Of a stretch of DNA of 64,000 bases, positions 1,461 through 57,106 are shown piece after piece. The stretch is taken from contig CAZSBG010000006.1 of assembly GCA_964605145.1 (NCBI GenBank), positions 28,788-92,787 of the forward strand, in the 5' to 3' direction. The stretch comes from an uncultured Cytophagia bacterium. GTDB lineage: Bacteria; Zhuqueibacterota; Zhuqueibacteria; Thermofontimicrobiales; Thermofontimicrobiaceae. Positions within the stretch are counted from its first letter, which is position 1; each line of letters starts with the position of its first letter. The position numbers were made by a program, and so were the translations under genes. Under the pieces are notes generated by a model that worked only from the letters and a program-made list of their open reading frames with translations, searched no databases and was not told where the DNA came from.

Positions 1461-1494
1461 AGATACCGATTACCTTTCAGGCTAAATTTATTCT

Positions 1495-1664
1495 TTAACC
1501 TGAATTATTCACAAATTTCAATCAAAAGATGTTTAAATTAATGTTATTAATCTAATTAATCAGATATATGAAATTTAACAAAGTTAGATATACTGAATTC
1601 GGAATGAAGCACCATTCAGGCTACCTGGATTCCTTAATGCATTACAATGAATAATCTAGGTTAA
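1495..1664 (+). mobile_element. MITE-like element copy A: 162 bp (1499-1660) with ~13-bp imperfect terminal inverted repeats (CCTGAATTATTCA ... TGAATAATCTAGG), flanked by 4-bp direct repeats TTAA
   Basis: About 80% identical over its full length to the reverse complement of 23709-23870. Both copies are exactly 162 bp between the inverted-repeat ends, and both are flanked by a 4-bp direct repeat matching YTAR (TTAA here, CTAA/TTAG at copy B). There is no coding capacity. Confidence 0.7.
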
Positions 1665-8852: not shown

Positions 8853-9566
8853 TTAATTCTGTTTAAATGTCTCTCTCTGAAAAAACTCAACCCTCTTTTT
8901 CTTGGAATTTAAGTTCAACTGTTTTAAATATCTAACCACCTGAAACCAGCTTAACTTTAAATTGCCGTACATCGGTGAATTTAACTCGCGCATAATTTTT
9001 ATGCTGCCATTCTCGGGATTTTCAATGACCAACTGTTTTATTTTTTCTTCGACGCTTTTATCCCCGGCATCCGACGAAATCATTTTATTTAAATACGCTT
9101 CTCTCTCGCTTGCATCGTCTTCGGAGTGAGAAGAATGACTCGTTTCTTCTTTATAACTTTCAGTGTCTCGTCTCACCTGACTGACACTTCGTTGTTCACC
9201 ACGCGGTCTGGATTTATCGAAATCAGCCACCGCATCTTCGATCGAATCGAAGGCTTTTAAAATATAATGAAATTCCAACAATTCAAATACTTCATACACG
9301 TCAGGAATCATGCCGATAAGCTTGAGGTCGCCACCTTTCTCCCGAATACCTTTAATCTCACTGATAAAAATACCCCAACCTGCGCTGCTTATGTAATCAA
9401 CATTGGACAAATCGATAATAATGTTGTAATTGTTGGCGTCTAACAAGGTTTCAAGAGAGTGTTCTAATTCTGCGGAAGTAGTCGTGTCAATATACCCACC
9501 CACCTTTATCACAGAAATATTGTTGTCAACACCTGTTTGTTTAACAGACAATTGAATTCCTTCCAT
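8853..9566 (-). CDS. STAS-domain protein (anti-sigma-factor antagonist-like) with a ~130-aa C-terminal extension
   Basis: The N-terminal ~110 aa (IKVGGYIDTTTSAELEHSLETLL ... DLSNVDYISSAGWGIFI) is a SpoIIAA/RsbV-type STAS fold. The C-terminal part is Ser/Glu-rich and then has a predicted helical domain. The track start is TTG at 9611; the ATG at 9566 preceded by GGAG is preferred. Confidence 0.75.
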   Translation of the reverse strand: MEGIQLSVKQTGVDNNISVIKVGGYIDTTTSAELEHSLETLLDANNYNIIIDLSNVDYISSAGWGIFISEIKGIREKGGDLKLIGMIPDVYEVFELLEFHYILKAFDSIEDAVADFDKSRPRGEQRSVSQVRRDTESYKEETSHSSHSEDDASEREAYLNKMISSDAGDKSVEEKIKQLVIENPENGSIKIMRELNSPMYGNLKLSWFQVVRYLKQLNLNSKKKRVEFFQRETFKQN

Positions 9567-9699
9567 CGAATACTCCAAGATGTATGATTCGCAAAATTTT
9601 CTTAAATTCAAATATAATAGAAAAACAAGTAAAAGTCAACAAAAAAATATGATTTACATCTTTCGTTTTTTTAATATACTATCTCATTTCTCTAAAAAT

Positions 9700-12600
9700 T
9701 TACTTACGATTTTTTAGTAATTCTTCAGCTTTGATAATATGATTCGAAATATCGTCTCTGCCGGGATCTAATTCGAGTAATTTTTTCCATTCCCCTATAG
9801 CTTCCTTTAACTTACCGTTATTCGCATAAATAACTCCTGTATTTTCATAAGCATCCGTATCTTTTGGATCCAGTTCTTTGACGCGAAGGTAAGCTGAAAC
9901 AGCCTTTTCGTATTGGTGGGAACGATAATAAGAGTTTCCCAGAATACTGAATGCTTCTTTGAACTCCGGATAAATTTTTGTAACTTGGAGGAATTGCTCA
10001 ACAGCTTGCTCGTAATTATGCTCATTATAAAATTTTAAACCCAGAATAAGGTGTTTCTCGCGAAGTGGGTCCTGTTTCGACAGGAATGAATTTGAATCTT
10101 CAGAATCATTTGTAACCTGGCTATTGGAAAAATTCATAAAATTATTCTCTTCGGATGCTCGTTTCTTTTCAGGATTTTTTGGCTGACCTTCGAGCACAAG
10201 CTCAGCTTCATCGTCCTGCAATTCGCCTTTTTCGAAAAATGAGATGTCCGATTCGATTTCATCCAATAAATCATTGAATGAAAATTCATCGCCCATAATT
10301 TCATCGTCCTCTAAAATATCCTGTTCATTAACTTCCGACACGTCCTGGACATCATCCAATAACTCCATGGTTTCATCTTGCGATTGATTCTCATCCTCTT
10401 CTTCGGAATCTTGAATTTCTTGTTCATCACTCAAGTCCAGTTTTCCATTATCGCCATTTTTATCCGTATCGGTTTGAAAAATTTCATTTTTAAAACTCGT
10501 TTCATCAACCAGTGTTTCGAAACCCAGATCGTCTGAGTTGTCTTCTTCAGAATCTTCGAGTAATTCATCTAAATTTATTGATGGTTTTGGTCTTTCCTGT
10601 TCTTCTTTCGGTTGATCAATTTCGTCAGGCTCGTCTGAAATTTCTTCTTTTGAATCTTCAAAGTCTGACGTTTCATTTAAATCCAAATCGTTTTCTTCAT
10701 CGTGTTCCCCCTGTTCATCCCAAATATCTTTGAAGCTGAAATCGTGCTCCAAGCCGAGATCATCAACGTCCTCAGCTTCTTCCGAAACGTCATCATCATC
10801 AAAATCAATATCGTCTTCCAGGTCAGTTGACTCTTCCTCTTCAAAAAAGATATCTTCCTCTGATTTTTCATCCGATGAATCGAAATCATCTTCACTTTCC
10901 GCAGTTTCTGATTCATCCTCGCGATGAATACTTGATTCATGCAAACCACCCTCTTCTTCATCGTCTTCTTCTTCATCCCGTTCTTTTTTGAGCAGGTCCT
11001 CAATTGGCATGGTCATCAGGCTTTCGAGGTAGAAGTTATCATCCGGATCCTTTGGCATCCTGACTTGCTTTGGCTTCCTGGGTTTATTTTTCTTTTCAAC
11101 GGGTCGTTCATCATCTTCTTCGTGACCGAGTTCTTTTTTCGATTCCTCCGGCGGCGGTGGTAAGGGAGGTTCGTCGTAGCTTCGGTCAAGAATAATCTTC
11201 CCGTCCAATGTTAACATCGGGGTACCCGGGGGTTTCATTCTCTTTTTCTTGCCTGACCGGGCGATATAAGCTTCCCGCAACTGCCGTGTGTTTAATCGAC
11301 TTCGAACGAGTTCATCATAGATTCGGCTTTCATTGATTTCCGTGTAGGTGTATTTTTCTGTGTTGAGTTCTTCGCTAATTCTCTTGGCACCAAATTCCGG
11401 ATGTTTCTTTATAATGTCATATATCTTCGTTTTTTCTTCGATACTCAGATGTTTCGCCTCGACGGCAATGGTTTCGTCAATGGAATAGGCGTCGATCCCT
11501 TCTTCTTCGAATATTTTTTTGTATTTATTATAGTATGCATAGGTTGTGATGCCTGATTCCTCACACGCTTCGCGGATATTTTTTCCGGCTAATATGGCGT
11601 TATGCGCTTTCTGCGCGCGATGCAATTCAATTTTTTCCGGCGAACTTTTTTCTTTGATGGCAACAACAGTGATATCGTCATTTTGGTCAAAGCCTTCTGT
11701 AAAAGAATGTATTTCATCTTTCAATTTATCGATAAATGCCTTGGCACGTAACGTTCCATGCTTACGTATCACATCCTGCAATCGCTCTTCACTGAACAAT
11801 TCACGGCGACCATTCATGGCCTCGGTGATACCATCGGTGTAAATCAATAGGATATCATCTTCGGCTAACTGAATTGTGTCCGATTCGATCGAACGTTTGA
11901 ACAATTCAGGATCCGGCAGTGAAATGCCCACCGGGAATCCCCTGGGATTTAAATAATACGTTTTCTTTGAACCCCGTCTGTAAAGAATCATTGGATTGTG
12001 CCCGGCGCTGGCGTAATTAATTCGTCGCTTTTTGGAATCAATGATGACATAAAACAGGGTCACAAACATTCCCTTTTTCATATCATTGACGACAAACTCG
12101 TTCACACGCGCCAACACCTCTGAAGCTGAACGAATGGAGCGCGCTTCGGTTCTCAGGGCAGTCCGAATCATTGTCATGATAAGTGAACCGGGAACGCCTT
12201 TTCCTGACACATCAGCAACGACAATCCCCAAAGTATCTTTATCCACTTCAACAAAATCGAAATAATCACCGCCAACTTGTTTGGCCGCTTCATAATGCGA
12301 TGCTATCTCGTATCCCTCCAGAACCGGGGTTTCTGCCGGAAGCAATGTCTGCTGTATATCCTGGGCCAGTTGCATTTCCTTTTGAATCCGCTCTTGTTCA
12401 GCGAGATTTTTCTGGGATTGTCGAAATTTATCCGTTATATCGCTAAAGGCTTTGGCAATCTCGCCCACTTCGTCGCCGCTATCGAAATCAATTTCGTCTT
12501 TGACATCTCCGCCATGACCCAGATCACTCACCCAGGTTGAGAGCTTGCGAAATGGATTCATTATTAAATAGATGAGCAATGTCACGCCGAGATAGCTCAG

Positions 12601-13593
12601 CGCCAAAATCATAAATGCTGTCAGAAGATCTCTCGTCCGAACCGAAGCCACCTTGCTGCTGACGACATCTTTTTGAAATTCCAGGTAGACGGTTCCAACC
12701 CTTACCCGAGAAGCATTGTATATATCGCTTACAAAGCTGTAAACTTCCGTTCCACTGTTGTCGTCTTTATATTTGTAGAGATTGGGACGTGGTTCATCGC
12801 GATCTGAGGGAATAACAAATTCCTGCCCCAGCAATGTTTCATCAGTTGAATTAATGATATAATTGGTCGTATCAGTGACTGACAGACGATAAAAATCGTC
12901 TTTTGACTCCTGAAATTCCTTAACTTTGAGCGCCACATAAAATATTTTCAAATCTTCATCTTCATTATCGATGATACTGCGGGCAATACTTTTGCCGGTA
13001 GGTCGCTCGATGGCAACAAATTCATCCAGCACTTCGTTCCCATGCTTGAAAAAATAATAGAAATATCCGATCGTAATAGCAACGAATAATATTAGTGCGG
13101 AAATGATTGAGTAGCGCATTTTCAAACTGACAGATATGGTGGGAGTCTGAATCACTTTTTTCTTGCGAAAAGAACTGACCCTGTATTTCGTCAGCCTGAG
13201 TTCATTGCCTTCTTCGGTATGATGGTATTCAATTTCATCCAGCAGCTTGCGCATGATAAAAATTCCCAGACCACCCTTTTTACCGATATCAACATACCGC
13301 TTCAAATCCGGGTCTGCAACTCGGGACGGATCAAAATATTTTCCCTGGTCGATAAGCACAACACTCATGCTGTTTTTCTTGACGATGACGCGCATTGTAA
13401 TCATGCCCTCCAGATCGCGGTAGGCATGCTTAATGATATTCGTCGCGGCCTCGTCAATGCACAGCTTGAATGCATTTACCACTGTATCCGGGAAGCTATG
13501 TTTGCGCCCTGCTTTGGTGACAAAATTCCGCAGTTCGCCCAGATAATCAATGTGAGCGGGAACTTTTATTTCTTCTTTAATCGCTGCTTTCAA
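9700..13593 (-). CDS. 1,297-aa multidomain transmembrane signalling protein. Domains, N to C: RsbW/SpoIIAB-like HATPase kinase, TM, periplasmic sensor, TM, HAMP, SpoIIE/PP2C phosphatase, HTH-like segment, ~370-aa polyacidic disordered region, TPR repeats.
   Basis: The N-terminus (FKLCIDEAATNIIKHAY ... GGLGIFIMRKL) matches anti-sigma-factor serine-kinase HATPase_c. There are two TM helices (aa ~160-182 and ~326-348). The PP2C motifs are YEIASHYEAAKQVGGDYFDF, VVADVSGKGVPGSLIM and YTDGITEA. The C-terminal TPRs are LILGLKFYNEHNYEQAVEQF.... Confidence 0.75.
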   Translation of the reverse strand: MKAAIKEEIKVPAHIDYLGELRNFVTKAGRKHSFPDTVVNAFKLCIDEAATNIIKHAYRDLEGMITMRVIVKKNSMSVVLIDQGKYFDPSRVADPDLKRYVDIGKKGGLGIFIMRKLLDEIEYHHTEEGNELRLTKYRVSSFRKKKVIQTPTISVSLKMRYSIISALILFVAITIGYFYYFFKHGNEVLDEFVAIERPTGKSIARSIIDNEDEDLKIFYVALKVKEFQESKDDFYRLSVTDTTNYIINSTDETLLGQEFVIPSDRDEPRPNLYKYKDDNSGTEVYSFVSDIYNASRVRVGTVYLEFQKDVVSSKVASVRTRDLLTAFMILALSYLGVTLLIYLIMNPFRKLSTWVSDLGHGGDVKDEIDFDSGDEVGEIAKAFSDITDKFRQSQKNLAEQERIQKEMQLAQDIQQTLLPAETPVLEGYEIASHYEAAKQVGGDYFDFVEVDKDTLGIVVADVSGKGVPGSLIMTMIRTALRTEARSIRSASEVLARVNEFVVNDMKKGMFVTLFYVIIDSKKRRINYASAGHNPMILYRRGSKKTYYLNPRGFPVGISLPDPELFKRSIESDTIQLAEDDILLIYTDGITEAMNGRRELFSEERLQDVIRKHGTLRAKAFIDKLKDEIHSFTEGFDQNDDITVVAIKEKSSPEKIELHRAQKAHNAILAGKNIREACEESGITTYAYYNKYKKIFEEEGIDAYSIDETIAVEAKHLSIEEKTKIYDIIKKHPEFGAKRISEELNTEKYTYTEINESRIYDELVRSRLNTRQLREAYIARSGKKKRMKPPGTPMLTLDGKIILDRSYDEPPLPPPPEESKKELGHEEDDERPVEKKNKPRKPKQVRMPKDPDDNFYLESLMTMPIEDLLKKERDEEEDDEEEGGLHESSIHREDESETAESEDDFDSSDEKSEEDIFFEEEESTDLEDDIDFDDDDVSEEAEDVDDLGLEHDFSFKDIWDEQGEHDEENDLDLNETSDFEDSKEEISDEPDEIDQPKEEQERPKPSINLDELLEDSEEDNSDDLGFETLVDETSFKNEIFQTDTDKNGDNGKLDLSDEQEIQDSEEEDENQSQDETMELLDDVQDVSEVNEQDILEDDEIMGDEFSFNDLLDEIESDISFFEKGELQDDEAELVLEGQPKNPEKKRASEENNFMNFSNSQVTNDSEDSNSFLSKQDPLREKHLILGLKFYNEHNYEQAVEQFLQVTKIYPEFKEAFSILGNSYYRSHQYEKAVSAYLRVKELDPKDTDAYENTGVIYANNGKLKEAIGEWKKLLELDPGRDDISNHIIKAEELLKNRK
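10083..11193 (-). repeat. Polyacidic low-complexity disordered region (D/E-rich, ~370 aa) within the multidomain signalling protein
   Basis: The coding strand is dominated by GAA/GAT/GAG codons. The Ser-rich track ORF on the opposite strand at 10730-10927 is an antisense artefact of this region. Confidence 0.8.
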
Positions 13594-13625: not shown

Positions 13626-15548
13626 CTATTTATTCCGCTGCCGTTGTCTCTCTTTTGCCTGATCGATGGCGTCCAATATTTCCTGGTTATAAGGTTGAAT
13701 TTCTAACAGCTCTTCCCAGGTTTTTATTGCGTCATTATATTTTTCAGCTCTATAGAGATTAATTCCTCGATTATACCGCTTGGTCATTTCCGGGGTCATT
13801 CGCTGTTTTTTCGCATTGGCGCGACGGTCTGCATCTTTATAGAATTTCTTTAGCTGCTCATTATTGGGCCGATGCTTAAGCGCCTCTTCGAATGAATTCA
13901 TCGCATTGATATAATCCTTTGTGATATAATACCGATATCCCTGCTGAAATAACTCATCGAATTGCATTTGCTGCTTGTATCGATTGCTGCGCGTTTCAAT
14001 TGCGTTAATTTGCTTTTGATCCGGATTCAACATACGCACATTGTTCAAAACACTGATGGCTTCCAGGTAGCGGCCCTTCCTGGCAAAATTATCCGCTCGG
14101 TTAATCAGCGAGAGTATTTTCTTTTCATAATCTGTATTTGCTTTGGCAATCCACTCTTTTGCCAGTACATTATTAGGATCGCGATCCAACATTTTCTGCC
14201 ATTCAGCAATGGCTTTTTCGTATTCATCGACTTCGTAGTGCGCCAATCCTGCATCAAATTGCCTGTCCAGGAAAATTTTCAATTCTTCGCGTCGTTTTTC
14301 TTCCTCATTACGGGTTCTGATTTCATCATAGGCTTGCTTAATTTTATCATCGCGTTTCTGAATTGTTGCTTCCGCCAATTTACGCGCTTCTTCGATCACC
14401 GTTGAATTTGGAATTTCATTCTCATAGCTGGTAATGAAATTGAATTCTCTCAACGCCCGGGCATAATCTTCAATTTCAAAATATTGTTTTCCGCGTTCCA
14501 GACTCTCCGCGATTTTTTCGTCCCGTTCCCAAATTCGCTGCTGTTCCACTTTCCGTTGAATTTCCTGCAGCCGCCGCTCTTCTGCTATTTTCACAAGCTC
14601 CTTTTTCGATTTTCCAAATGTCATGCTCAAAGAAATTCGGTGGCTTGCATCGAATTCATTTTCTGAAAATTTTCCATACGAGTAATCTATCTGAAACTTG
14701 TTAACCACTGCGCCAGCGCCAAAGGCAAGCTGATTGTTATTCAGCCCAACGCGCAGCATGGCGAAATTATTGAACACATATTCAGTGCCGGTGTGATATT
14801 TGAACGGCTCATATTCACTTTGCTCAAAATCCATAAAAATCGTGAACTGATTTCCCCATTCATTGGTTAAAATGGGCTTGGCAAATCCCATTCGGAAATT
14901 CAGCGGGTGGACATCTGTTTCGGAAATTAACTTCAGTCTCGGTCCGACAACATTTTGCAGCGCCACTCCAACAGAAAGCCCGCTCAAAAGTGCATTGGTA
15001 AAATTGGGTCGATATAAAAATCCAAGATCGAGTCCAACGCCTGTATCCGATATTTTAAAAATGCTTTGATGCTCAACCTTCAGGTTCACGCCGACACTGA
15101 TATTCCACGGCAACTGTTTTCCGTAGGAAACCAAAAACTGTTGATTGGAGAGTGAATTATCGTCCCCATAATAAACATTATCATTATCTCTTTCAGGAAT
15201 TCCACCGGTTCCAATGCTGATGGCGGCCACACCGAACGAGCCCAACGCCACTGTGGGATGAGCATAACCCACATAAAAATATTGAGTATCCATGACGAGA
15301 TTGGTATAAAACAAGCTCACGTTTTTTCTTTGAATATAATCCAGTCCGGCGGGATTCCAATAAACTGCGGTTGCATCGAACGGCATCGCAACGTAGGCAT
15401 TGCCCAGCGCCAGAGCCCTGGCGCCGACCCCAAGATTGAAATTGCTTTGCGTCCCTGCAAAACCATCATCTCCTTTAGCTATACCGGCAAACATACCAAA
15501 TGCCAGAAAAAAACTGAAAATCCCTATGAATAAATTTGATTTTCGCAT
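13626..15548 (-). CDS. FadL/PorV-like outer-membrane beta-barrel (N-terminal ~310 aa) fused to a ~330-aa TPR/coiled-coil C-terminal domain
   Basis: Signal peptide, then GVGARALALGNAYVAMPFDATAVYWNPAGL, the FadL/PorV-family N-terminal motif. The first half has alternating beta-strand-like segments. The C-terminal half is TPR-like (YEKAIAEWQKMLDRDPNN, YNDAIKTWEELLEIQPYN) and rich in charged coiled-coil. It starts 17 nt after the giant T9SS cargo gene. Confidence 0.65.
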   Translation of the reverse strand: MRKSNLFIGIFSFFLAFGMFAGIAKGDDGFAGTQSNFNLGVGARALALGNAYVAMPFDATAVYWNPAGLDYIQRKNVSLFYTNLVMDTQYFYVGYAHPTVALGSFGVAAISIGTGGIPERDNDNVYYGDDNSLSNQQFLVSYGKQLPWNISVGVNLKVEHQSIFKISDTGVGLDLGFLYRPNFTNALLSGLSVGVALQNVVGPRLKLISETDVHPLNFRMGFAKPILTNEWGNQFTIFMDFEQSEYEPFKYHTGTEYVFNNFAMLRVGLNNNQLAFGAGAVVNKFQIDYSYGKFSENEFDASHRISLSMTFGKSKKELVKIAEERRLQEIQRKVEQQRIWERDEKIAESLERGKQYFEIEDYARALREFNFITSYENEIPNSTVIEEARKLAEATIQKRDDKIKQAYDEIRTRNEEEKRREELKIFLDRQFDAGLAHYEVDEYEKAIAEWQKMLDRDPNNVLAKEWIAKANTDYEKKILSLINRADNFARKGRYLEAISVLNNVRMLNPDQKQINAIETRSNRYKQQMQFDELFQQGYRYYITKDYINAMNSFEEALKHRPNNEQLKKFYKDADRRANAKKQRMTPEMTKRYNRGINLYRAEKYNDAIKTWEELLEIQPYNQEILDAIDQAKERQRQRNK

Positions 15549-15565: not shown

Positions 15566-18500
15566 CTATTTTATCACTGCAATTTTTATGAGTGCTGATT
15601 TTCCATTACCAGTGGATATTCTGGCAACGTAGACGCCGTTTAATACCTTATATCCCTGACCATTTCTGCCATCCCAAATCACATCCGAATCGTGCAAACC
15701 TTTTCGACCCTGAGGCTCGAGTTCAGAATAGGTGCGTGACCAAACCAGCTCGCCGATCAACGTATATATTTGTATTTTCACTTCAGTGTCTTCATCCAGG
15801 TAATAGACGAAATTGGTCACCGGCCTCCCGATTTCTCCGAAAGGATTGGGATAATTGCTGAACGCCTTGTCAAAATCCGCTTCAATTATTACCGATGGCT
15901 CAGATTCAAAATTAAGCGCTTCCAATGTTTGCCCATTGACATTCTTTAATTTCGGCGTTTGCCCGGATTCCTCATCATAAAGATAAAGAGAATTGACCGA
16001 ATCAATCGCTATTTGAAAATCACTAATTTCGGCTGTGGTTGCAATATCCACTTTGAACTGAACCTGGTTTTCAATTTCAGGTTTGAGCGTATCTATTTGT
16101 GAAAATAGAATTTCAATTGGATTTGACGTTGGAATTGCTGTTATCTGTCCAAAAACTTCATTGTTTTGCTGATTATTCACAACACAGACGCGTGAAATAA
16201 CCTGGGCCGGATTTGTAACAGGCACGCCAAATCGATCCTTCAATTTAATTTTAACGCCTGTAAACAGTATATTGTTCGAAAACGCATCGCCGGATGCCAG
16301 CAATTCCAGTCCCATCATGGACACGCCGGTATCCCCCCGGGCAATCGTGTTTTTTGTTGTTGTGGGCAACATACTCACAGTGACGCTTTTTTCTTCAGCA
16401 GAAATTGGAATCGAAACATTTTTCAGCAAGATTGCTTCTGCTGCAACAGGTAGATTTGAGTTTTCATCTTCCGGCCAACTCACGAGGTCAATCGCGATAT
16501 TGCTTGGATCTCTCTCTGATGTCGGTGCGGTGATTGTCCAGAACAGTGAATCATTATACGCAGCCGTCTGGGTTAAATCCTGCGCGATGGAATATCCCTG
16601 GCCTTCCGGCAAAGTTAACGTTGCATTGAAATTTCCCAAAATGTTTGCATCGCCGGTTTTTGAAAGATAAGCGCTCACTACAAAGTTTTGATTCGTTGAA
16701 ACGATACCATCCAGAGCGCTTGCCGGAGATAATATTTTACCTTTCAATTGAATTTCTGCCCGGCGAACCACGTCCACTTCCAGCGAATCCGATGTTCTGG
16801 TGAATGATATTCGACTGTTGGCATCCTGCGCTGTTAATTTCATCCAGATGTGCTGATCGTCGATTGTGCCTCCCGGCGTGGTGATTGTCCAATTCACTGT
16901 TCCCTGGTCGCCAACTCCCACCGGTAATTTTGGATAGGATTCCGGCGTTGTAAATCCTCCTTCCAATTGCAGTTGCACGGAAGGCGCGCCGGTACAGTTA
17001 AACCAGCTCACATCAGCTTCAATTTGAAAGGATTGATGAGTTGACAGAATTTTATCAATCGCCCCGACCGGTGATACAATCCGGAGATTCTCGATCCAGG
17101 CATTTGCCGATTGTTGCGTCTGAACATAGTAATATTTTGATCGGGTCGGCACCATTGCTTTTTCATTTGTATTCACATCTTTGGGTATCGTATTGATGGT
17201 GACAACAATTGGTGCTTTCAGGGTTTCGACTTCAGGAGCCAGCAATCGCCAGGTTACAGGAATATCCGGCTGGAACGGTTTCACTGTATCGTCCTCCGTG
17301 GTGACGCCGGTTGCTCCAAAATCGATGCTCAAATACGCCGCGCCTTCAAGAGGTGCATCCCCAGAATTAATGACAATCGCACTCAAATCGAATTCCTGTC
17401 CCATGGAAAGTGTGCTGTCGGTGGAAGGCCAGGAAATCCATGCCCGATCGATCAACAACGTCGCCCGATTTTCAACTACGACAGAAATACTGTCAGATGC
17501 CGTGACCTCATCGCCTCCAACGGTTCCTGTGACCAGAACTTTTATCCACTTCTCATTGGAATGTGCGTTTTCAGGAGCGATAAGTTCCCAACCGGCCACG
17601 TCTGCGACGTTCGCTTTGATTGAATCTGTGCCAGGCGCAAATCTGTATCCTGCCGGGAGGTTCAATCTGGCGTTTGCGCTGGTGATGTTTTCCGACTTCA
17701 TAATATCTACCTGAACCCAAAAATTCTGAAGTGTGGATAAAGTATCATCCAGCGCCCCTTCAGGCGAACTTATTTCGAATGATTCCACGGCAAGCTCCAG
17801 AGGCACCGTTCTCACCACAAGTGAATCAAACGGGTCCGTATTTTCTATCAAAGCAAATGAGCCGGTATTTTCATCCAAAGGCGGTTTTGAAATCTTCGCG
17901 ACAATCGTATCGTTACTGGACGCATATGAAGGCGGCACGACCTGCCATTCCACTGTTTCATTAATTTCAAACGATGTGGTATCGGATGATTTTTGTTGTT
18001 GGTCGACCACGACAAAATAATTCTGCGGCATGAATAAGGCCAGTTCGCCGCTGGCGTCCACATCTGCTGTTCCGAGATTTTCAATTTGAACCTGAAATGG
18101 CGCGACCTGGCCAATCGAGTAAATCGAATGTTCCTTATTGATGGAAATTTTCAACAGGGCCGGATCGTGCACACGAACCAACGCTGTGGAGTCAGATGCT
18201 CCACCGATTGTAGCCGGAAGGCCGCTGCCGTGTGAAATAGCTGATTCAATTCGCACTGTAAATTTCACCTGTTCAGTGGCCACGGACTGTGCCGCAACAT
18301 TGAAAGTAGCAATGGCCTCTCCTGAAGGTAAAATATTATCGATATTCACAGAGGGTATGATGTACCCAGGCGCTGTTAAACTCACCAGCACATTATCAAC
18401 TTGTTCCCCCCCGGTATTACGGATTTTTGATCTCACGGAAAAAGCCTGGTTTGTGTTCACCTGGCCGATATCGTACTGGTTAATATTTCGACACACCGGT

Positions 18501-21500
18501 TCCGTAAAATCGATGAAAACATCTGCAGACGGACGAACATAAACCGCGCCTGAGTCTGCCACCTGAAAAGTTGTATTTGTATTTAAATAGGTTCCACTCA
18601 AATTTAGTTTTATTTTTGCCATTCCGCCCAAAACACCGGTACTTGTCACGCGGTAAATCAGCGTATCGGCTCCATTCCAGGACAGCGTTAAATTTGGATT
18701 ATTTTCAAATTCGAGTGGCGCCACGATGGTGTAATCATCCTGCTCATTCCCGGTAATTATGATGGATACATCCTCTCTGTTTGGCGGATCCAATTTTATG
18801 AATCCCGCTCCGCTATCTTCAACAGCCACGATAATTTGCCATTCGAAAGGACTCAGCGCTCTGACCGTATCCTGCGATGGCGAAATGGAAACAATTTTGA
18901 ACTTGCCTGGTCGCTGTACAGTGACTGTATCCGTCGAATCGACTGAGGGGCTGATAAAAATTTTATCAGGCTCCGTCGGTGTATTTTCTGCAAATGCGGT
19001 ATCAATTGAGGCGGAGAATACTTCATCCCAAATCCAGTCCGATGACGCCTGTACATTGAACTTTAGCGTATCCGTGCTCGCGCCTTGCACAATTTCAAGG
19101 GAATCCACCGGATTCAAAATAGTTGATGTACTATCACTAATTAACGACATTTTGATATTTTGGGCCGCGTCTTCTCCCTGGTTCTGGACAAGAACGGCTA
19201 TCTGGAAAACCTGATTATTATCCACATACGGCGCATTGGGCGCAATATTCACAGTTTTCAGAATTCGAATATCGGCCGGCATTTCTACCTTAATTGTTGT
19301 GCTATCTTCAGCGGTTTTTTCTTCCTGACTGTTTATCTCCTCGGCAAAAACCGATACATGAATCGTTCGACTGCCTGCAACAGAACCGGTTGTGTCCACT
19401 GAAAAAATCAGGCTGTCCGTAGCGCCGGAAGGCAGCTTGAAAAAGCCGAGTGTTTCAAAACTTATTGGGAAACTGACCACATAATTTGTGTCATCCCCAA
19501 AACTCACAAAGTCATTCAGGTGTGTCGAATCGATTGCAATATCTCCGCCACCGTTATTAGTTAGCGAAATAATAGTCTGCCAGGGCATTGATTGATTTAC
19601 TGTTACTTCTGGTTGGGATGTTCGAATATAATCTATAACAAGCTCACCCGGCGCCTGCACCGTTACCCCGGTCACTTTGCTTTTGATGATTTGACCGCTG
19701 ATCATATCATTCAAATAAACTGTTCCTCCAATGGTAACTGAACCGATTGTTGTGCCGGTTTCATCAACCGTTACTATCAGCGTATCGGTCAATCCGGCAT
19801 CGAGCAAACTATCACCACTTGTCTTGAATGTGTCAGGATATAACATCTGGTACTCGCTCGAAATATCTGAACCGCCATAGGTAAAATTTACCCGAGCGCT
19901 ATCCAGCCGCAACGGCGCTCCCCCATTATTGCGAATTACCATGTTCAGAAACCAGTTCTCAGCCTGACCGCTGGTGACCGTTCTCTGACTGGGATAAAAA
20001 TCGACTATTTCCAAATCAGATGCTTGTTTGACATACCATTGATCGGTTGTGTCTGCGTTCAAATCCGAATAGGGTAGTTCTGAGTTTTCATCGCTTGCAT
20101 AGACTTTTCCATCGATTGTTATGCTGTCGAGTGTGGCATTTGTGCCTACCGTTACGGTAAAGAACAGACTATCCAGGCTGTGCCCTGCGATTGAGGTTGG
20201 ATTCGTCGGATAAGGCACGAGCGCATATTCGTCACTCACATCTAAAATTGGTGGCGTTAAATTTGAATAAGAGAATCTCACTGAATCCACAATCGCCGTT
20301 GCATCCCCATTATTCTGAATCCTTGCGGAGATAATTGTATTTGTCCCCTGGGTAACGGTATCTGCATCAGCTTTCACTCTCAAAAATTGTAGTGAAGGAG
20401 GCGTTTGAACCAGCCATTTATCCGTTTCATTGGCTGCCACATCGCTTACAGAACTGCCATTTACCCTGCAATTAATGAAACCATCGATCTGGATTGAATC
20501 TGTCAATGCGTTTGACTTCACATTCACTAAAAAACTTAGGGTCTTATTTCCATTTCCTGGTAACACTGAAATCGTATCATTACGACTCACAATATAATCG
20601 CCTGAACGATTTGAATAACCGGGTGCAGGGCCGGTAAATTCTAATCCAGCGCCATCAGAAATTATCGTGGCATTTGAAGCGCCATGATTTTTCACGGCCA
20701 TCAGAACCGTTATATTTTGTTGATTGCGGCTCACTTTATCAAAATCTGAACTAACAGACAGAATCTCCAACCCGGAAATAATTATGCTGGTATCCCCAAC
20801 TGCACTTCCCCTGACAACACTATTCGCCTGAACGAGAGCCGTTCCACCTGTTACACCTGCATTGACAACGAATGAAATTTGGCCTGCTGTGTCTGATACA
20901 ACCTGTGTGCCTCCGATACCCGGATTTTCATCAGGTGTTGTAATGGTACCCAATGTTGTTGACACGGTGAAATATTCGCCGCTGGAAATTGGATTGTTAT
21001 CGCTGTCACGAATTGTATCCGACGTAACCACAGAAAACGAATCAGGATCGGCCGGTATTATTTCAGGAACAGGATGAAGTACAATTTCGCCTATCGGTAC
21101 GCCGGGATTTACAGTAATGAGTCCAGTCGTATCATTTTCTGCTGTAGCATGCACGGCCAGAATTTTTCCGTGCGCCGGCGCTGTTGATGGCGAGAAATCA
21201 AGCGTTGAACCGGTCCACAATACAGCCGGCGCTAATGTACTGTCACTGGACCAATCTACAACCGCCGGCCCGAGATAAACATTTCCTTCGTCATAAGCAG
21301 CCGCATACAGTGTCAATGTTTCATCGGCTGAAATGGTACGCGTCGTCACCACATTGCCGGCGCCATTATCTGCATCGCGAATGAGCACGTGGTGAATGGC
21401 TCCCACAGTAAATGTACCTGTCGAATCGGCTCCCACACTCACACTGTCAGCATAAATTCGTCCACTCGTATAGGGCGTAGCCGGACTGAACATTGTGCTC

Positions 21501-23656
21501 GTTCCCTGCAATGGAGTTGGCGTATCCAGATCTCCGGTGGTTCCCCAGTCTGCAACCACTTCTCGAATGTAATTATCATACTGGTCGTATCCTGCAGCGT
21601 AAAGGGATATTTGATCATCCAGATTCAACATATAATCACCAACCTCGGAGCCCAAACCACCCGGATTATCCCGAATGACAATGTGATTCAATCCATCTGG
21701 TTTCACATTGAAATTATTCGAAACACCACTCTCGCCGGAGCCGGCTGCAGTGATTTTATTATCCGTATATTTTTTTGTGATTGTTAAATTTCCTGACCAG
21801 GTGCCTGCACTGAAATTTCCTGTGGAACCGGGGCTCAAAGAACCGGACTCATCCGTCAAACTGACCGCATTTGTAAATCCGGTCACTATATTTTCGTATG
21901 CATCGTTTGCTTCAATAGTCACCGAGAAAGGTGTTCCAGCAGTCTGCGGGCTGGAAATATCTGAAATTGAAAAATGATCCAGTGATGCCGGGTTCACATT
22001 AAAGCTGTTTGACGTTCCGTTTTTATCGCTGCCATTGACAATGATTTTATTACTGGAACCAGTTTTCGTGACAATCACATTACCATTCCAGCTCCCTCCA
22101 CTGAAACTGCCTGAAACCTGGGGAGTGAGTGTGCCTGTTAAATCACTCATCGCCACAGGACCGGCGTACGTTGGTATTGTATTCCCTTCTCTATCCTCTG
22201 CCGTTACAGTTATCGAAAAAGAATTACCGGCTGTTTGTGGTGTTGAAATAGCGTCAATAGTAAAATGATCTAACGCTCCCACTTGTACATCAAAAGCATT
22301 TGATGTCCCGGTTTCGCCTCCGCCGGATCGCTGAACGCTGATCTGATCATTGGTAAAATCGGCTGTAATCTTCACCTGACCGTTCCATTCTCCGCCGCTG
22401 AAATTGTCACTCTGATTGGGCGAGACTGTCCCGCTATTATCCGAAATATCTACTTTTCCGGTAAAACTTGTTACGGTGTTATCATAATTGTCCTGGGCAG
22501 TAACTGAAATGGAAAAATATTCGCCCGCAGTTTTGGGAGAAGAAATCGGCCCGATGTAAAATTTTGCCAAACTTCCGGGATTCACATTGAATAAATTCGA
22601 TGTGCCAACTTTGGAACTCCCGGATGCTGTAATGTAATTATCGCTCTGGCTTTCCGTGATTGTTACGCTTTGCGTTAATGAACCTGAGCTAAAAATATTT
22701 GATGTTTCGTTGAGCGAACCGGTAAGATCGGTCAACAATACAGTGCCAGTAAAACTTTCCACAAGATTCTCATACTGATCCCTCGCAGTAACTGTAATGC
22801 TGAATGACGTCCCGGCCGTTTTTGGACTGGTGATTGTGTTAAATGTAAAATGATCCAGGCCGGCAGGCAAAACATCAAATTCAGATGACATGCCGGATAT
22901 ATCATTATACGTGGCTGTAATTTTATTATTCGACCTGCTTTTAGTAAACGTCACCGTACTATTCCAGACACCTGCTGTGATGCTGCCGGTAGATGTTGGG
23001 CTAATAGTATCGGTTAAATCTGTCAGCGCAACAGAAGATGTATGCGACGTGACCGTATTGTCGTATGCATCCTGTGCGGTAATTGTGACAGAAAAATTTG
23101 AACCAGCCGTTGCATCGCCACTTGTACTGACATCAAAATGATCCAGCGCTCCGGCAGCAATTGAAAAATTTGGTGTATTCCCGTCATCGATATGGGTGTA
23201 TCCCTGGGTCATGGTAATAATTTTTACGCTATAATTATCCGCATCCGGGTTATTCCCCACAGTTCCGATACTGATTTCCACCTCGGTTGATGCCGGAACT
23301 TTTGTTCCGGTGCCATCACGTTCGATCATGACCGAGTCACCATTAACATATTGTATGGAAACACCGCCATTGATACTGCCATCCTCCGAATCGGCAATTT
23401 GAACGCCCGTGAGATCGAATCCCGACGGAAAAATTAATTTAATTTTGCCATCCACCGGGATGCCGTCATCAGCATTATTCCCTGTCGCTGAAGTTGTGAA
23501 AGTAAAAGTATAAATCGCGGACTCCCCGGCAACATTATCACTCAAACTTGTACTCATATTTGCTAGATCACCTTGCGCAAATACTATAGTTGCATTCCCT
23601 GAAAAAATGAGAATTATTACTATTACGATCCCTGCTCTCAGATGTCTTATCCTCAT
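15566..23656 (-). CDS. Giant (~2,696-aa) cell-surface protein with tandem Ig-like repeats and a C-terminal type-A T9SS sorting domain
   Basis: Signal peptide MRIRHLRAGIVIVIILIFSGNATIVFA (ATG at 23656; the track start at 23671 is TTG). At least five ~95-aa tandem repeats share the motif LDHF..ISSPQTAG..FS.TVTA.D.Y.N...F.G.V.L. The last ~90 aa (NYPNPFGE...VYVARISTGNGKSALIKIAVIK) match the Por_Secre_tail / TIGR04183-type CTD. Confidence 0.85.
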   Translation of the reverse strand: MRIRHLRAGIVIVIILIFSGNATIVFAQGDLANMSTSLSDNVAGESAIYTFTFTTSATGNNADDGIPVDGKIKLIFPSGFDLTGVQIADSEDGSINGGVSIQYVNGDSVMIERDGTGTKVPASTEVEISIGTVGNNPDADNYSVKIITMTQGYTHIDDGNTPNFSIAAGALDHFDVSTSGDATAGSNFSVTITAQDAYDNTVTSHTSSVALTDLTDTISPTSTGSITAGVWNSTVTFTKSRSNNKITATYNDISGMSSEFDVLPAGLDHFTFNTITSPKTAGTSFSITVTARDQYENLVESFTGTVLLTDLTGSLNETSNIFSSGSLTQSVTITESQSDNYITASGSSKVGTSNLFNVNPGSLAKFYIGPISSPKTAGEYFSISVTAQDNYDNTVTSFTGKVDISDNSGTVSPNQSDNFSGGEWNGQVKITADFTNDQISVQRSGGGETGTSNAFDVQVGALDHFTIDAISTPQTAGNSFSITVTAEDREGNTIPTYAGPVAMSDLTGTLTPQVSGSFSGGSWNGNVIVTKTGSSNKIIVNGSDKNGTSNSFNVNPASLDHFSISDISSPQTAGTPFSVTIEANDAYENIVTGFTNAVSLTDESGSLSPGSTGNFSAGTWSGNLTITKKYTDNKITAAGSGESGVSNNFNVKPDGLNHIVIRDNPGGLGSEVGDYMLNLDDQISLYAAGYDQYDNYIREVVADWGTTGDLDTPTPLQGTSTMFSPATPYTSGRIYADSVSVGADSTGTFTVGAIHHVLIRDADNGAGNVVTTRTISADETLTLYAAAYDEGNVYLGPAVVDWSSDSTLAPAVLWTGSTLDFSPSTAPAHGKILAVHATAENDTTGLITVNPGVPIGEIVLHPVPEIIPADPDSFSVVTSDTIRDSDNNPISSGEYFTVSTTLGTITTPDENPGIGGTQVVSDTAGQISFVVNAGVTGGTALVQANSVVRGSAVGDTSIIISGLEILSVSSDFDKVSRNQQNITVLMAVKNHGASNATIISDGAGLEFTGPAPGYSNRSGDYIVSRNDTISVLPGNGNKTLSFLVNVKSNALTDSIQIDGFINCRVNGSSVSDVAANETDKWLVQTPPSLQFLRVKADADTVTQGTNTIISARIQNNGDATAIVDSVRFSYSNLTPPILDVSDEYALVPYPTNPTSIAGHSLDSLFFTVTVGTNATLDSITIDGKVYASDENSELPYSDLNADTTDQWYVKQASDLEIVDFYPSQRTVTSGQAENWFLNMVIRNNGGAPLRLDSARVNFTYGGSDISSEYQMLYPDTFKTSGDSLLDAGLTDTLIVTVDETGTTIGSVTIGGTVYLNDMISGQIIKSKVTGVTVQAPGELVIDYIRTSQPEVTVNQSMPWQTIISLTNNGGGDIAIDSTHLNDFVSFGDDTNYVVSFPISFETLGFFKLPSGATDSLIFSVDTTGSVAGSRTIHVSVFAEEINSQEEKTAEDSTTIKVEMPADIRILKTVNIAPNAPYVDNNQVFQIAVLVQNQGEDAAQNIKMSLISDSTSTILNPVDSLEIVQGASTDTLKFNVQASSDWIWDEVFSASIDTAFAENTPTEPDKIFISPSVDSTDTVTVQRPGKFKIVSISPSQDTVRALSPFEWQIIVAVEDSGAGFIKLDPPNREDVSIIITGNEQDDYTIVAPLEFENNPNLTLSWNGADTLIYRVTSTGVLGGMAKIKLNLSGTYLNTNTTFQVADSGAVYVRPSADVFIDFTEPVCRNINQYDIGQVNTNQAFSVRSKIRNTGGEQVDNVLVSLTAPGYIIPSVNIDNILPSGEAIATFNVAAQSVATEQVKFTVRIESAISHGSGLPATIGGASDSTALVRVHDPALLKISINKEHSIYSIGQVAPFQVQIENLGTADVDASGELALFMPQNYFVVVDQQQKSSDTTSFEINETVEWQVVPPSYASSNDTIVAKISKPPLDENTGSFALIENTDPFDSLVVRTVPLELAVESFEISSPEGALDDTLSTLQNFWVQVDIMKSENITSANARLNLPAGYRFAPGTDSIKANVADVAGWELIAPENAHSNEKWIKVLVTGTVGGDEVTASDSISVVVENRATLLIDRAWISWPSTDSTLSMGQEFDLSAIVINSGDAPLEGAAYLSIDFGATGVTTEDDTVKPFQPDIPVTWRLLAPEVETLKAPIVVTINTIPKDVNTNEKAMVPTRSKYYYVQTQQSANAWIENLRIVSPVGAIDKILSTHQSFQIEADVSWFNCTGAPSVQLQLEGGFTTPESYPKLPVGVGDQGTVNWTITTPGGTIDDQHIWMKLTAQDANSRISFTRTSDSLEVDVVRRAEIQLKGKILSPASALDGIVSTNQNFVVSAYLSKTGDANILGNFNATLTLPEGQGYSIAQDLTQTAAYNDSLFWTITAPTSERDPSNIAIDLVSWPEDENSNLPVAAEAILLKNVSIPISAEEKSVTVSMLPTTTKNTIARGDTGVSMMGLELLASGDAFSNNILFTGVKIKLKDRFGVPVTNPAQVISRVCVVNNQQNNEVFGQITAIPTSNPIEILFSQIDTLKPEIENQVQFKVDIATTAEISDFQIAIDSVNSLYLYDEESGQTPKLKNVNGQTLEALNFESEPSVIIEADFDKAFSNYPNPFGEIGRPVTNFVYYLDEDTEVKIQIYTLIGELVWSRTYSELEPQGRKGLHDSDVIWDGRNGQGYKVLNGVYVARISTGNGKSALIKIAVIK
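15569..15850 (-). other. Type-A T9SS C-terminal sorting domain of the giant surface protein
   Basis: YPNPF ... IWDGRNGQGYKVLNGVYVARI ... K terminal pattern. Confidence 0.75.
21750..23160 (-). repeat. In-frame tandem coding repeats (~285 nt units, about five copies) encoding Ig-like domains near the 5' end of the giant gene
   Basis: Recurrent nucleotide and protein-level units (...LDHF.ISDISSPQTAG.PFSVT..A.DAYEN.VT.FT..V.LTD.SG.L.P...G.FS.G.W.GN..ITK...NKI...GS...G.SN.FNVNP..L). Confidence 0.7.
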
Positions 23657-23704
23657 TTGATGCTCTTCCAAAGTTTTTGTTCGTCAATTCTTTTTCATCT
23701 GTCT

Positions 23705-23874
23705 CTAACCTGGATTATTCATTGTAATTCATTAAGGAATCCAGATAGCCTAAATGCTGCTTAATTCAGAATTCGTTATATCAAACTCTGTTAAATTTCA
23801 TACACCTCGTTAATCTTTTTAATAACATTTATTTATATATGTTTAGGTTGAAATCTGTGAATAATTCAGGCTAA
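23705..23874 (-). mobile_element. MITE-like element copy B: 162 bp (23709-23870), inverted relative to copy A, flanked by CTAA direct repeats
   Basis: The reverse complement aligns end to end with 1499-1660. Its terminal inverted repeats are CCTGGATTATTCA ... TGAATAATTCAGG, with 4-bp CTAA at 23705-23708 and 23871-23874. Its end nearest the giant surface-protein gene lies about 50 nt upstream of that gene's ATG. Confidence 0.7.
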
Positions 23875-23889
23875 AAATCAGACTGCATG

Positions 23890-24399
23890 TTATTCTTTTT
23901 CGGGCAGAATTCTGTGTATTTTTTCCTGCTTTAAAACTGATCTTTCATCTTCTATTATTTCCACTGTTATTCTATAGTTATCGGCAGGTTTTAAAGGATT
24001 TTTTACAATCGCGAACTTGACATCCACTTTTTCATTCGGTTTTATTTCTCTTCCAAGCCCGGATCTTTTCAGCGTCAATATCTGGTCATTGACCTCAACG
24101 TCAAATCCACCATTCATTGTTGTTGAGCTGGCTATCATCAATTCTGATAAATCAAACTCCGCTGGAAAAGTGACATTCAATTTTGCCGTCGGCGAAATCG
24201 GTTTTTCGATTCTAAATTCAATTTTGTAAATCGATTTTGCACTTGATTCAGGATGTCTGGCAATCACATTGACAGTATCGGCAGGTGCAGCGCTCGCCAC
24301 ACTGGTGAAAAAATAAATTATTGTAATAAAAAATAGTATTGGGATGAATCTGGTCTTCCCTGTCTCAAACCTATGATATGTTTCAGAAAGATACATCAT
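23890..24399 (-). CDS. Small secreted protein (169 aa), paralogous to the N-terminal domain of the giant surface protein
   Basis: Signal peptide, then SIYKIEFRIE...KLNVTFPAEFDLSEL...NGGFDVEVND...RSGLGREI...VKNPLKPADNYRITVEII. This aligns with the giant protein's AIYTFTFTT...KIKLIFPSGFDLTGV...NGGVSIQYVN...RDGTGTKV...GNNPDADNYSVKIIT. There is no T9SS CTD. Confidence 0.7.
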   Translation of the reverse strand: MMYLSETYHRFETGKTRFIPILFFITIIYFFTSVASAAPADTVNVIARHPESSAKSIYKIEFRIEKPISPTAKLNVTFPAEFDLSELMIASSTTMNGGFDVEVNDQILTLKRSGLGREIKPNEKVDVKFAIVKNPLKPADNYRITVEIIEDERSVLKQEKIHRILPEKE

Positions 24400-24716
24400 T
24401 GTATATTCTCCATGTTAGATTGAAAAACATGATTCGCTCTAAAAAACTTGGTTATATAATTATATTGGATTATTTCCAGTGCGTGGGTGATTTTCATCAA
24501 AAAATTAAATAATACTATCCAAAAAAATTTTCTAAGTTCAGAAAAAATATAAAAAACATATTATTTAAATTTCTGAATTGCAAAAATTATACCGATGTTC
24601 ATAAAAGGTACTCATTCAATGAGGAAATATAAGAAGGTGAAAATGCAGACTTATTCCATCATACATTCATGTGATTTGCTTGCCATGAAAAGGAATAAGT
24701 CCTGCAATTTAATAAA

Positions 24717-25847
24717 TTATTTCAAAATTGCCCGAAGAAGTATTAAAAATCCTTTACCATCGTTCTCTGCTAATTTTAAATTCTTCTCAGCTTTTTTGAA
24801 ATCAGGATTAATTTTCAATGCCTGACGGAATTCTTCAAGCGCATTTAAGAACAGATTTCGACACTGAATCAAATAGACAATTCCCAGACTATTCCGCAAA
24901 TCTGCATAGTCAGGATTTTTCTGAATGACATCTTTCAGTTGTTTTGTATATTGCATGATGAATTCATCATCTTTACCTTTGCCGCCAAACATAAATTTCA
25001 GATAAAACTCATTCTCAAAATCGTAGCCCACAATATCTGATCGGTCGGACTCGGCAATTTCCAGTGCGTTCACTGCTTCATCTATATTTTCGTCATCCAG
25101 ATGTTTGAGAATAGTGTCAATATTTTCCGGTTTGAAAAACTGCTTTTTCTCTTTTATTTCTGTCAACAGTGATTTAATCTTTTCAAGACGAATCACTTTA
25201 TTGGGAAGATTTTCGTTCTCTTCAATGCCTTCAACAATTGTCTTCAAAAAAACCAGACAAAGATTGAACATGGCGACTACGTAATCCGAATTCAGTTCAA
25301 TCGCTTTTTGCAATTCAGAAATTGCTTCGGAATATTTTTCCTTATTTAAATATGCGTATCCTAAATTATTATGAATATCCGCATAGTCAGAATTGTATTC
25401 AATTCCTGTATTAAAAACGTCGATAGCCTCCTGATACAATTTCTCTTTTAAATACGCTCTGCCGAGATTATTATAAGCTTCTACCATTTCAGGATCGATT
25501 TCCAGAGCCCGCTTAAATTCGGAAATCGCCTCATCCACCATATTTTTGCTCAGGAAAACCATCCCAAGTTTGTTGTTGGAAACAGCGTGCTCTATCATTT
25601 TCACTTTATCTGAAATATAGAACAGCAATTCAATGTCAGAAATCATACTTTGGTGGAGCTTGTTCACTTCGAGCTTTATGTCCGAAATACCGATTTCATT
25701 GGATAGCTCTACACCTTTTGACACTGTTACTTTTCCATCATCAAATACGCTTGATACAACCTTTTCATTGGGTTCCAGGTATTGTGTTTGAATATGGAAT
25801 TTTTTACCGCCCGCCAGAATCTCGCTATTCAATCCAATATTTTCCAT
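24717..25847 (-). CDS. TPR-repeat protein
   Basis: Multiple canonical TPR units (AYNNLGRAYLKEKLYQEAIDVF, IHNNLGYAYLNKEKYSEAISELQKAIELN, LRNSLGIVYL...) with a short N-terminal beta-rich domain. Confidence 0.7.
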   Translation of the reverse strand: MENIGLNSEILAGGKKFHIQTQYLEPNEKVVSSVFDDGKVTVSKGVELSNEIGISDIKLEVNKLHQSMISDIELLFYISDKVKMIEHAVSNNKLGMVFLSKNMVDEAISEFKRALEIDPEMVEAYNNLGRAYLKEKLYQEAIDVFNTGIEYNSDYADIHNNLGYAYLNKEKYSEAISELQKAIELNSDYVVAMFNLCLVFLKTIVEGIEENENLPNKVIRLEKIKSLLTEIKEKKQFFKPENIDTILKHLDDENIDEAVNALEIAESDRSDIVGYDFENEFYLKFMFGGKGKDDEFIMQYTKQLKDVIQKNPDYADLRNSLGIVYLIQCRNLFLNALEEFRQALKINPDFKKAEKNLKLAENDGKGFLILLRAILK

Positions 25848-27983: not shown

Positions 27984-28101
27984 GACCCCTCCTATTTAAA
28001 ATTAGTATACGTTTCTCTTAGAACCATCGAGAAAGCAGGTGAATCCTGCACCAAAAATATTCCTGTTGCCTTATTAATCATGCAGGAATAATTATCTATG
28101 T

Positions 28102-29073: not shown

Positions 29074-29210
29074 TCTTTATCCCCACCTGACATCTATCCG
29101 AAATGTACAATCAAATTTAAAAGGAAAGAGAGAAATATTTAAATTATAACACCGATGGATGTTTTTGCCTCCAAAAGCACCCATCGGTAAATGCTAAATT
29201 ACTATCTAAA

Positions 29211-47294: not shown

Positions 47295-47316
47295 GTTCTT
47301 TTCTCACAATGCTATG

Positions 47317-49263
<1,947 letters not shown>

Positions 49264-49352
49264 TTATTTTTATCCCGTGAAATTAGGATGGAAAAACGTG
49301 GGGAATTTTTTGCTGTTCAGCAGATCCCCTGTAAATTTCGAAGACGAAAATC

Positions 49353-50765: not shown

Positions 50766-50774
50766 GGATAGAAA

Positions 50775-54573: not shown

Positions 54574-54590
54574 AGTTGTTCGGTCTTTTT

Positions 54591-54941: not shown

Positions 54942-54981
54942 TACGCTTTTAAAGGATTTGTCAATATATAGTATTTGATAT

Positions 54982-55191: not shown

Positions 55192-55220
55192 TTCAATTTT
55201 AATCGATATAGGATAATGTA

Positions 55221-57080: not shown

Positions 57081-57106
57081 TAAATAAGGAAGAAAATTAG
57101 AATATT

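Follow-up and report, generated by a model that had tools for sequence, protein, structure and literature searches.

Introduction

Giant surface proteins with type IX secretion system (T9SS)-type tails are common across Bacteroidota-related phyla, and the periplasmic handling of such long cargos and the sensing of their production are, to our knowledge, poorly understood. T9SS cargos with a linked outer-membrane shuttle or anchor are described for Flavobacterium and Porphyromonas, namely SprB with SprF and the proteins bearing a C-terminal domain (CTD) of type B with PorP-like proteins (PMC9143113, PMC12618676). In Porphyromonas gingivalis, PorA was proposed as a ligand of the PorXY regulatory system (PMC12152298), and in Vibrio fischeri, SypE and SypA of the syp locus control biofilm formation (PMC3610818). 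The present analysis concerned a small open reading frame (ORF) located at 23890..24399 (-) of a 64,000-nucleotide stretch of contig CAZSBG010000006.1 (GenBank assembly GCA_964605145.1), the whole of which is called the window, and the gene following it, which encodes a giant protein of 2,696 amino acids (15566..23656 (-)). An earlier note on this DNA had described the small product as a free-standing secreted paralogue of the N-terminal domain of a giant adhesin. Our comparison across related loci pointed to an ancient and strictly paired paralogue, which may act as a periplasmic partner of the giant protein.

Homology and conserved pairing of the small and giant proteins

BLASTP of the small protein against the first 266 residues of the giant protein, with the signal peptides included, gave 27% identity over 142 amino acids (E-value (E), 3e-10), and the mature small protein searched against the whole giant returned a single significant high-scoring segment pair at giant residues 70-146, with 32% identity and an E of 4e-9. 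When the orthologue families of both proteins were aligned with hhalign after removal of the signal peptides, the probability was 99.7% and the E was 2.6e-25 over 113 columns. The motifs FPxxFDL, NGG, RxGxG, and NP..DNY were all present in the small/giant alignments. The homologous domain of the giant occupied residues 31-166 (23159..23566 (-)) and was its sole copy, as hmmsearch with both family profiles found no further copies within the giant or, likewise, within its distant orthologues.

The identity of cognate small/giant pairs in the joint alignment was 24.4%, compared with 25.6% for non-cognate pairs, and the similarity of the cognate pair ranked anywhere from 3rd to 15th of 15. Since cognate pairs were no more alike than non-cognate ones, the duplication of the small and giant domains must predate the clade, with no concerted evolution. 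As judged from these alignments, the small protein is an ancient paralogue of the first domain of the giant. Among closer relatives, it was somewhat better conserved than the domain of the giant (for example, 55-62% versus 40-50%), and its family possessed invariant motifs of its own, namely xPADT at the mature N-terminus, RSGLGR, and NEKVDVKFA.VKNP, which were absent from the domain of the giant. The composition of the paralogues also differed: the small protein contained approximately 30% Lys, Arg, Asp, and Glu with an isoelectric point (pI) of about 5-9, and the domain of the giant had a pI of 4.1-4.6 with few Lys or Arg residues in most loci, the exceptions being the high-GC loci L020 and L021.

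The gene context was read in 29 loci of about 20 kb each, and both genes were visible in 22 distinct loci. In all of these (22/22), the small gene was located directly upstream of a giant gene containing exactly one copy of the N-terminal domain, including members with approximately 30% identity and the high-GC relatives (L015, L019-L021, and L024-L026). No locus examined contained one of the two genes without the other, save where contigs ended, and the distant stand-alone family members that were examined occupied the same cassette. On contigs of sufficient length, the conserved order was a TPR protein of approximately 376 amino acids, the small protein, the giant protein (2,077-3,297 amino acids among the orthologues), a PorV/PorQ-TPR protein of approximately 640 amino acids, and a HATPase_c_2/HAMP/SpoIIE/TPR protein of approximately 1,300 amino acids, followed in the window by a STAS gene. 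The earlier note had claimed both the similarity to the N-terminal domain of the giant, motifs included, and the position of the small gene immediately upstream; the former proved significant in pairwise as well as profile alignment, and the latter was found wherever the contig permitted it to be seen. The spacer between the two genes was usually 12-90 bp, reached about 290 bp in L013, and measured 233 bp in the window, and its coding strand contained no recognizable intrinsic terminator. Co-transcription of the two genes is plausible.

Sequence features and fold of the small protein

The small ORF encodes 169 amino acids, or 168 if translation begins at the second ATG (24396), which is the likely start because the orthologues begin with MYLxET. 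A predicted Sec/signal peptidase I signal peptide (residues 1-37; 24289..24399 (-)) was assigned by inspection from its charged n-region, hydrophobic core at residues 18-36, and cleavage site between A-S-A and A-P. In the alignment, the small-x-A pattern ahead of xPADT was kept across the orthologues. The mature protein (23893..24288 (-)) consisted of the single 132-residue domain homologous to the N-terminal domain of the giant. It had no lipobox, and no Cys was present in the region of the signal peptide, as would be needed for a bacterial lipoprotein; no Cys at all was found in 16 of 17 mature small-protein sequences. Searches against Pfam and NCBIfam gave no significant match, and a C-terminal sorting domain (TIGR04183 type A or type B) was absent. 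Because the alignment with the N-terminal domain of the giant took up the mature small protein from one end to the other, no space was left for a sorting tail of 70-90 residues. The signal peptide and the lack of a CTD had been stated correctly in the earlier note, and its word “secreted” would cover export across the inner membrane, with no indication that the outer membrane is crossed.

The AlphaFold2 model of the small protein (mean predicted local distance difference test score, 80) comprised the signal helix followed by a β-sandwich of nine strands, and the fold was complete: neither the model nor the family alignment gave evidence of a missing or donor strand. Full-length conservation was extensive, as 52 protein clusters of 139-204 amino acids matched the small protein over essentially its full length with 45-100% identity; the named source organism among these clusters was candidate division KSB1. 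The ratios of nonsynonymous to synonymous substitution rates (dN/dS, Nei-Gojobori) among the orthologues of the small gene were 0.12-0.24, with 0.15 for the least saturated pair. Together with the full-length conservation, these ratios demonstrated that the small ORF is a functional gene under purifying selection.

The domain family beyond the locus

The domain family is contained in neither Pfam nor NCBIfam, and its sequence profile found nothing in the PDB (best E, 0.58). When 1.84 billion representative proteins were searched with the profile, 663 matched at E up to 1e-3. Among the best 150 of these 663 matches, 88 were stand-alone proteins of 98-250 amino acids, and 62 were large proteins, many of which carried multiple copies. 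Arrays of 5-29 copies of the module were found in other large proteins, the largest being the 29 matched stretches of P0054 (5,426 amino acids); P0057 contained 10 stretches followed by three SLH domains, and P0073 was visibly a head-to-tail array of the module. By these profiles, the module is a widespread and uncatalogued building block of cell-surface proteins, and it packs against its own copies. In the P0053 locus (L027), a 4,357-residue protein with 16 copies of the module is encoded beside a GAF-GAF-SpoIIE phosphatase and further proteins of very large size, and this is a second, independent association between the module and a PP2C phosphatase.

Other families with β-sandwich folds were compared with the domain of the small protein. 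No Pfam match to cohesin (PF00963) and no dockerin partner were found, and the match to the YcnI/DUF1775 family (PF07987) reached an E of only 0.23. The YcnI family has a copper-binding N-terminal His. The sequence identities of the cohesin and YcnI β-sandwiches to the small-protein domain were 9-16%, and the likeness was in fold only.

The giant protein and the mobile element in the spacer

The start of the giant protein was most likely the ATG at 23656 (MRIRHL...), since the start region was conserved in L028 and L029. A signal peptide was recognized by inspection, a PorV/PorQ-family gene was adjacent, and the C-terminus contained a borderline T9SS type-A-like sorting domain (residues 2602-2692; 15581..15853 (-)). 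None of the T9SS core genes (SprA/Sov, PorK/L/M/N, and PorU) was found in the 64-kb window or in the 20-kb loci, which cover a part of each genome. The label “adhesin” used in the earlier note is an assumption, and the giant is better described by its richness in repeats and its borderline T9SS type-A tail. The signal peptides of the giants (23560-23656 (-) in the window, and those of the orthologues) nearly all ended in Ala followed by Gln (FAQG, YAQG, and LAQG), which places Gln at position +1, as in the “Q-rule” of Bacteroidota. Among the small proteins, the cleavage-site Ala was followed by xPADT in the clade of the window and again by Gln in more distant members.

The 233-bp spacer of the window is explained by the presence of a miniature inverted-repeat transposable element (MITE)-like sequence of 170 bp (23706..23875, strand unassigned) that lies between the two genes and bears terminal inverted repeats of 16 bp, in which 14 of the 16 bases were complementary. 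A second MITE-like copy, inverted and 84% identical to the first, was located at 1494..1663 (strand unassigned). The element is short and non-coding, has inverted termini, occurs in two copies, and has an empty site in L028 and L029, all of which fit a MITE. These two loci are the closest relatives, with small proteins 83% and 76% identical to that of the window and spacers of 70 bp and 66 bp. Since the spacer was empty in them, the insertion must be recent and lineage-specific. The intervening MITE pointed out in the earlier note was thus real, but its suggestion that the element may have shaped the arrangement did not hold, for the arrangement is far older, being present without the MITE in L028 and L029 and with spacers of 12-290 bp in distant loci.

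Promoter and 5′ region of the small gene

A predicted sigma-54-type -24/-12 motif, GGTATAATTTTTGCA, was located approximately 185 nt upstream of the small gene (24579..24593 (-)). It fitted the GG-N10-GC consensus of sigma-54, for which flanks resembling TGGCAC-N5-TTGCW were the yardstick, and was the sole match to GGYAYR-N4-TTGCW in the 64-kb window; the pattern with a leading T gave no match, and the pattern without it gave the single match, because the locus has a C at that position. In 19 of the 22 loci, a slightly relaxed motif was present upstream of the small gene; it was usually the sole match within 20 kb of that strand. Its position was about -175 to -200 for one clade; in others, it was about -70 to -120. 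As the conserved motif was found upstream of the small gene only, this gene appears to head the operon. No gene for an enhancer-binding protein, which would act as the activator, was found in the window.

Two further conserved stretches were observed around the start of the small gene. A block in the presumed 5′ untranslated region (UTR), TGATGAAAATCACCCAyTAGTyGAAAATAAACCAGTA (24462-24499 (-)), was kept in the clade of the window, L001, L004-L008, and L028 at about 65-100 nt before the start codon, and it could be a protein-binding site. The first codons (MYLxET; 24378-24396 (-)) were conserved in the DNA, including synonymous positions, as ATGTATCTnnnTGAAACAT, an imperfect palindrome or hairpin of 6 bp (AUGUaUC...GAaACAU) that would enclose the start codon; the hairpin was invariant and consequently showed no covariation. 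High-GC relatives kept M-D-E-T at the start of the small protein. Rfam gave no matches on 23500-24900, and RNAalifold of the 5′ UTR of nine loci gave no supported structure (-2.55 kcal/mol).

Neighboring genes

Downstream of the giant gene, a 640-residue protein with a predicted outer-membrane barrel and a C-terminal TPR part is encoded at 13626..15548 (-). Residues 38-311 matched NF033709 with 136.2 bits against a cut-off of 90, which places the barrel in the PorV/PorQ family, and since the PorV, PorQ, and PorV2 equivalogs scored far below their cut-offs, the protein is a family member rather than the orthologue of a named one. The TPR part comprised about 300 residues, and the gene adjoined that of the giant in all loci of sufficient length.

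The next gene (9700..13593 (-)), which is syntenic among the loci, encodes a predicted transmembrane sensor of 1,297 amino acids, recognized by Pfam matches and hydrophobic segments (residues 153-171 and 327-345). Its order was a cytoplasmic RsbW-like kinase (HATPase_c_2), a transmembrane segment, a periplasmic segment of approximately 150 residues, a second transmembrane segment, HAMP, PP2C (SpoIIE), and TPR. The presumed substrate of the kinase and phosphatase is the STAS-domain protein of 252 amino acids encoded at 8853..9611 (-) (PF01740, E 7.7e-18), whose C-terminal 120 residues or so had no annotation. With PF13581 (5.6e-27) and PF07228 (8.5e-51) in addition to PF01740, the set corresponded to a partner switch of the RsbW/RsbU/RsbV type. 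On the other side, a TPR protein of 376 amino acids without a signal peptide (24717..25847 (-)) was conserved immediately upstream of the sigma-54-type promoter.

A few genes further upstream, beyond rsmD and coaD, a trio at 26994-30107 (-) comprised a pseudopilin-like gene (with a weak GspG match and an N-terminal hydrophobic helix), a PilM_2 gene, and a gene with a single transmembrane segment (PilO-like in relatives), with synteny kept across the same loci. An 885-residue fusion of a patatin-like phospholipase, POTRA repeats, and an Omp85 barrel is encoded at 39944-42601 (+). The origin-proximal set at 44862-58543 consisted of gyrA, gyrB, recF, dnaN, and dnaA (-) followed by yidC, mnmE, mnmG, and rsmG (+), and the gap at about 53.8-55.2 kb may be the site of oriC. 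Beyond the cassette, the window as a whole was housekeeping in content and close to the replication origin.

Discussion

The reading that we prefer, with a probability of roughly one in three (0.35), is that the small protein serves as a dedicated periplasmic partner, which would cap or hold the N-terminal domain of the giant. The small protein would be exported by Sec and would most likely stay in the periplasm, a location suggested by the lack of a sorting domain or lipid anchor and by its charge-rich composition, as opposed to the acidic, Lys/Arg-poor domain of the giant; the latter composition is expected of an extracellular domain. It would then bind the N-terminal domain of the giant via the domain packing of the tandem arrays, and would cap or hold the end of the 2,696-residue cargo that emerges first, up to its export and anchoring. 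Its role may be that of a holdase or cap, or may lie in retention or in the control of release; the earlier note had put forward a cap, chaperone, decoy, or competitive regulator. Direct binding would be the most economical mechanism because the module packs against itself in arrays and the giant always offers exactly one N-terminal domain.

Several observations weigh against this proposal. The tail of the giant was borderline both to TIGR04183 (21.5 bits versus a cut-off of 23; E, 1.7e-4) and to FlgD_ig (16.6 bits versus 27). The lack of raised similarity within cognate pairs neither supports nor excludes binding, and the motifs common to both paralogues may be purely structural, as the tandem arrays keep them too. 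Moreover, the conserved linkage would fit equally well if the small protein had its role at the sensor, or at the TPR domain of the PorV/PorQ-like protein.

Both of these neighbors were considered as targets in place of the giant. Since the sensor has a periplasmic segment between its two transmembrane segments, followed by HAMP, and is always present in the same cassette, the small protein, alone or in competition with the giant, might bind the periplasmic segment of approximately 150 residues and thereby signal to the STAS switch that the giant is being exported or is accumulating. There is precedent in PorA with PorXY, a small T9SS-related protein as the ligand of a regulatory sensor (PMC12152298), and in SypE and SypA, where kinase and phosphatase activities on a STAS protein control a surface or biofilm trait (PMC3610818). 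The periplasmic segment, however, contained no domain recognizable by Pfam, and from the sequence we regard such a role as unlikely; the fuller form of the idea, in which a paralogue of the cargo would create a secretion checkpoint by linking the giant's export to the STAS protein and its transmembrane kinase/phosphatase, seems slightly less likely still. An adaptor role at the TPR domain of the PorV/PorQ-TPR protein draws on the fact that a TPR part fused to a barrel is likely to be a periplasmic protein-binding module. With such a role, or with that of an independent envelope protein, the small protein would share ancestry rather than contact with the giant, and the invariant motifs found only in the small family (RSGLGR, NEKVDVKFA, and xPADT) would be in keeping with this. 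The rule of exactly one homologous N-terminal copy in every giant would be difficult to account for if the paralogues had no functional link, and the adaptor role is accordingly improbable in our view.

The small protein might instead reach the cell surface by hitch-hiking across the outer membrane on the giant, and there extend, cap, or polymerize on the distal N-terminal domain, as minor or tip pilus subunits and CsgB/CsgA of curli might suggest by analogy. The absence of a sorting domain and lipobox, the charge-rich composition unlike that of the extracellular domains of the giant, and the complete fold with no evident missing or donor strand all argue against this. We know of no description of hitch-hiking through the T9SS, which also counts against such a subunit, and we consider its existence doubtful. 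Chance similarity, a pseudogene remnant, or a donor cassette for swapping or gene conversion into the giant is hardly credible; only the gene adjacency and the nearby MITE speak for such a reading. Chance is refuted by the profile-profile E of 2.6e-25, and a remnant, which the earlier note had considered, is ruled out by dN/dS of 0.12-0.24 and by conservation in more than 50 full-length clusters. The template for domain swapping that the same note had put forward left no sign of gene conversion, which was rejected because cognate pairs showed no raised identity in the joint alignment (24.4% versus 25.6%), and the MITE was absent in close relatives.

Whatever the partner of the small protein, the analysis defined a cassette of five genes, conserved across KSB1-type bacteria and apparently under the control of sigma-54. 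In it, the cargo is always accompanied by a stand-alone copy of its first domain, by a dedicated PorV/PorQ-TPR protein, and by a transmembrane sensor of the partner-switching kind. This cassette is a concrete system for studying cargo-specific accessory factors. The analysis also defined a β-sandwich module missing from Pfam, with 663 representative proteins in which it stands alone or forms arrays reaching 29 copies. In practical terms, the weight of the finding is moderate, and metagenome assemblies are the only source from which the organisms are known here. If the small protein did report secretion to the sensor, the cassette, which belongs to a candidate phylum that has been little studied, would contain a checkpoint on the secretion of a T9SS-type surface protein.

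Comparison with known systems

The literature search found no paper joining KSB1 with type IX secretion, or type IX secretion with sigma-54 and a giant protein, and nothing useful on PorV2; nor did it find a description of a free-standing paralogue of the N-terminal domain of a cargo. We know of no described T9SS system with such a paralogue. Pilus systems (Gram-positive sortase, chaperone-usher, and type V) offer a likeness in their minor, tip, and anchor subunits, which are paralogous to the main subunit, since there, too, a large surface structure has a part whose fold recurs in a small protein encoded next to it. Unlike these subunits, the small protein has no sortase motif, lipobox, missing or donor strand, usher, or other outer-membrane export route. 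With PorA and PorXY, the locus shares a small secretion-linked protein proposed to signal to an inner-membrane sensor, although PorA is itself a cargo with a C-terminal sorting domain, and the small protein lacks such a domain and has no sequence relationship to it.

The neighbors of the small gene resemble SypE and SypA in that an N-terminal RsbW-like serine kinase and a C-terminal PP2C are joined in one protein, the sensor, which is accompanied by a STAS protein in a locus for a surface structure with a putative sigma-54-type promoter; the syp locus of V. fischeri has sigma-54-dependent promoters. Unlike in SypE, the receiver domain is replaced here by two transmembrane segments, a periplasmic segment, and HAMP, and TPR is added. 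The product of the locus is a giant protein rather than a polysaccharide, and the likeness concerns the neighbors, not the small protein.

SprB/SprF resembles the present locus in having a very large repeat-rich surface protein with a C-terminal sorting domain encoded beside its own barrel of the T9SS-shuttle type, with accessory genes in the operon. The barrel here, however, belongs to the PorV/PorQ family and is fused to TPR, rather than being PorP/SprF, the tail of the giant is type-A-like and borderline, and the hosts are of the KSB1 type and not Bacteroidota. The cassette here also has a putative sigma-54-type promoter and a linked SypE-like transmembrane sensor. Above all, the N-terminal domain of the cargo here has a free-standing paralogue.
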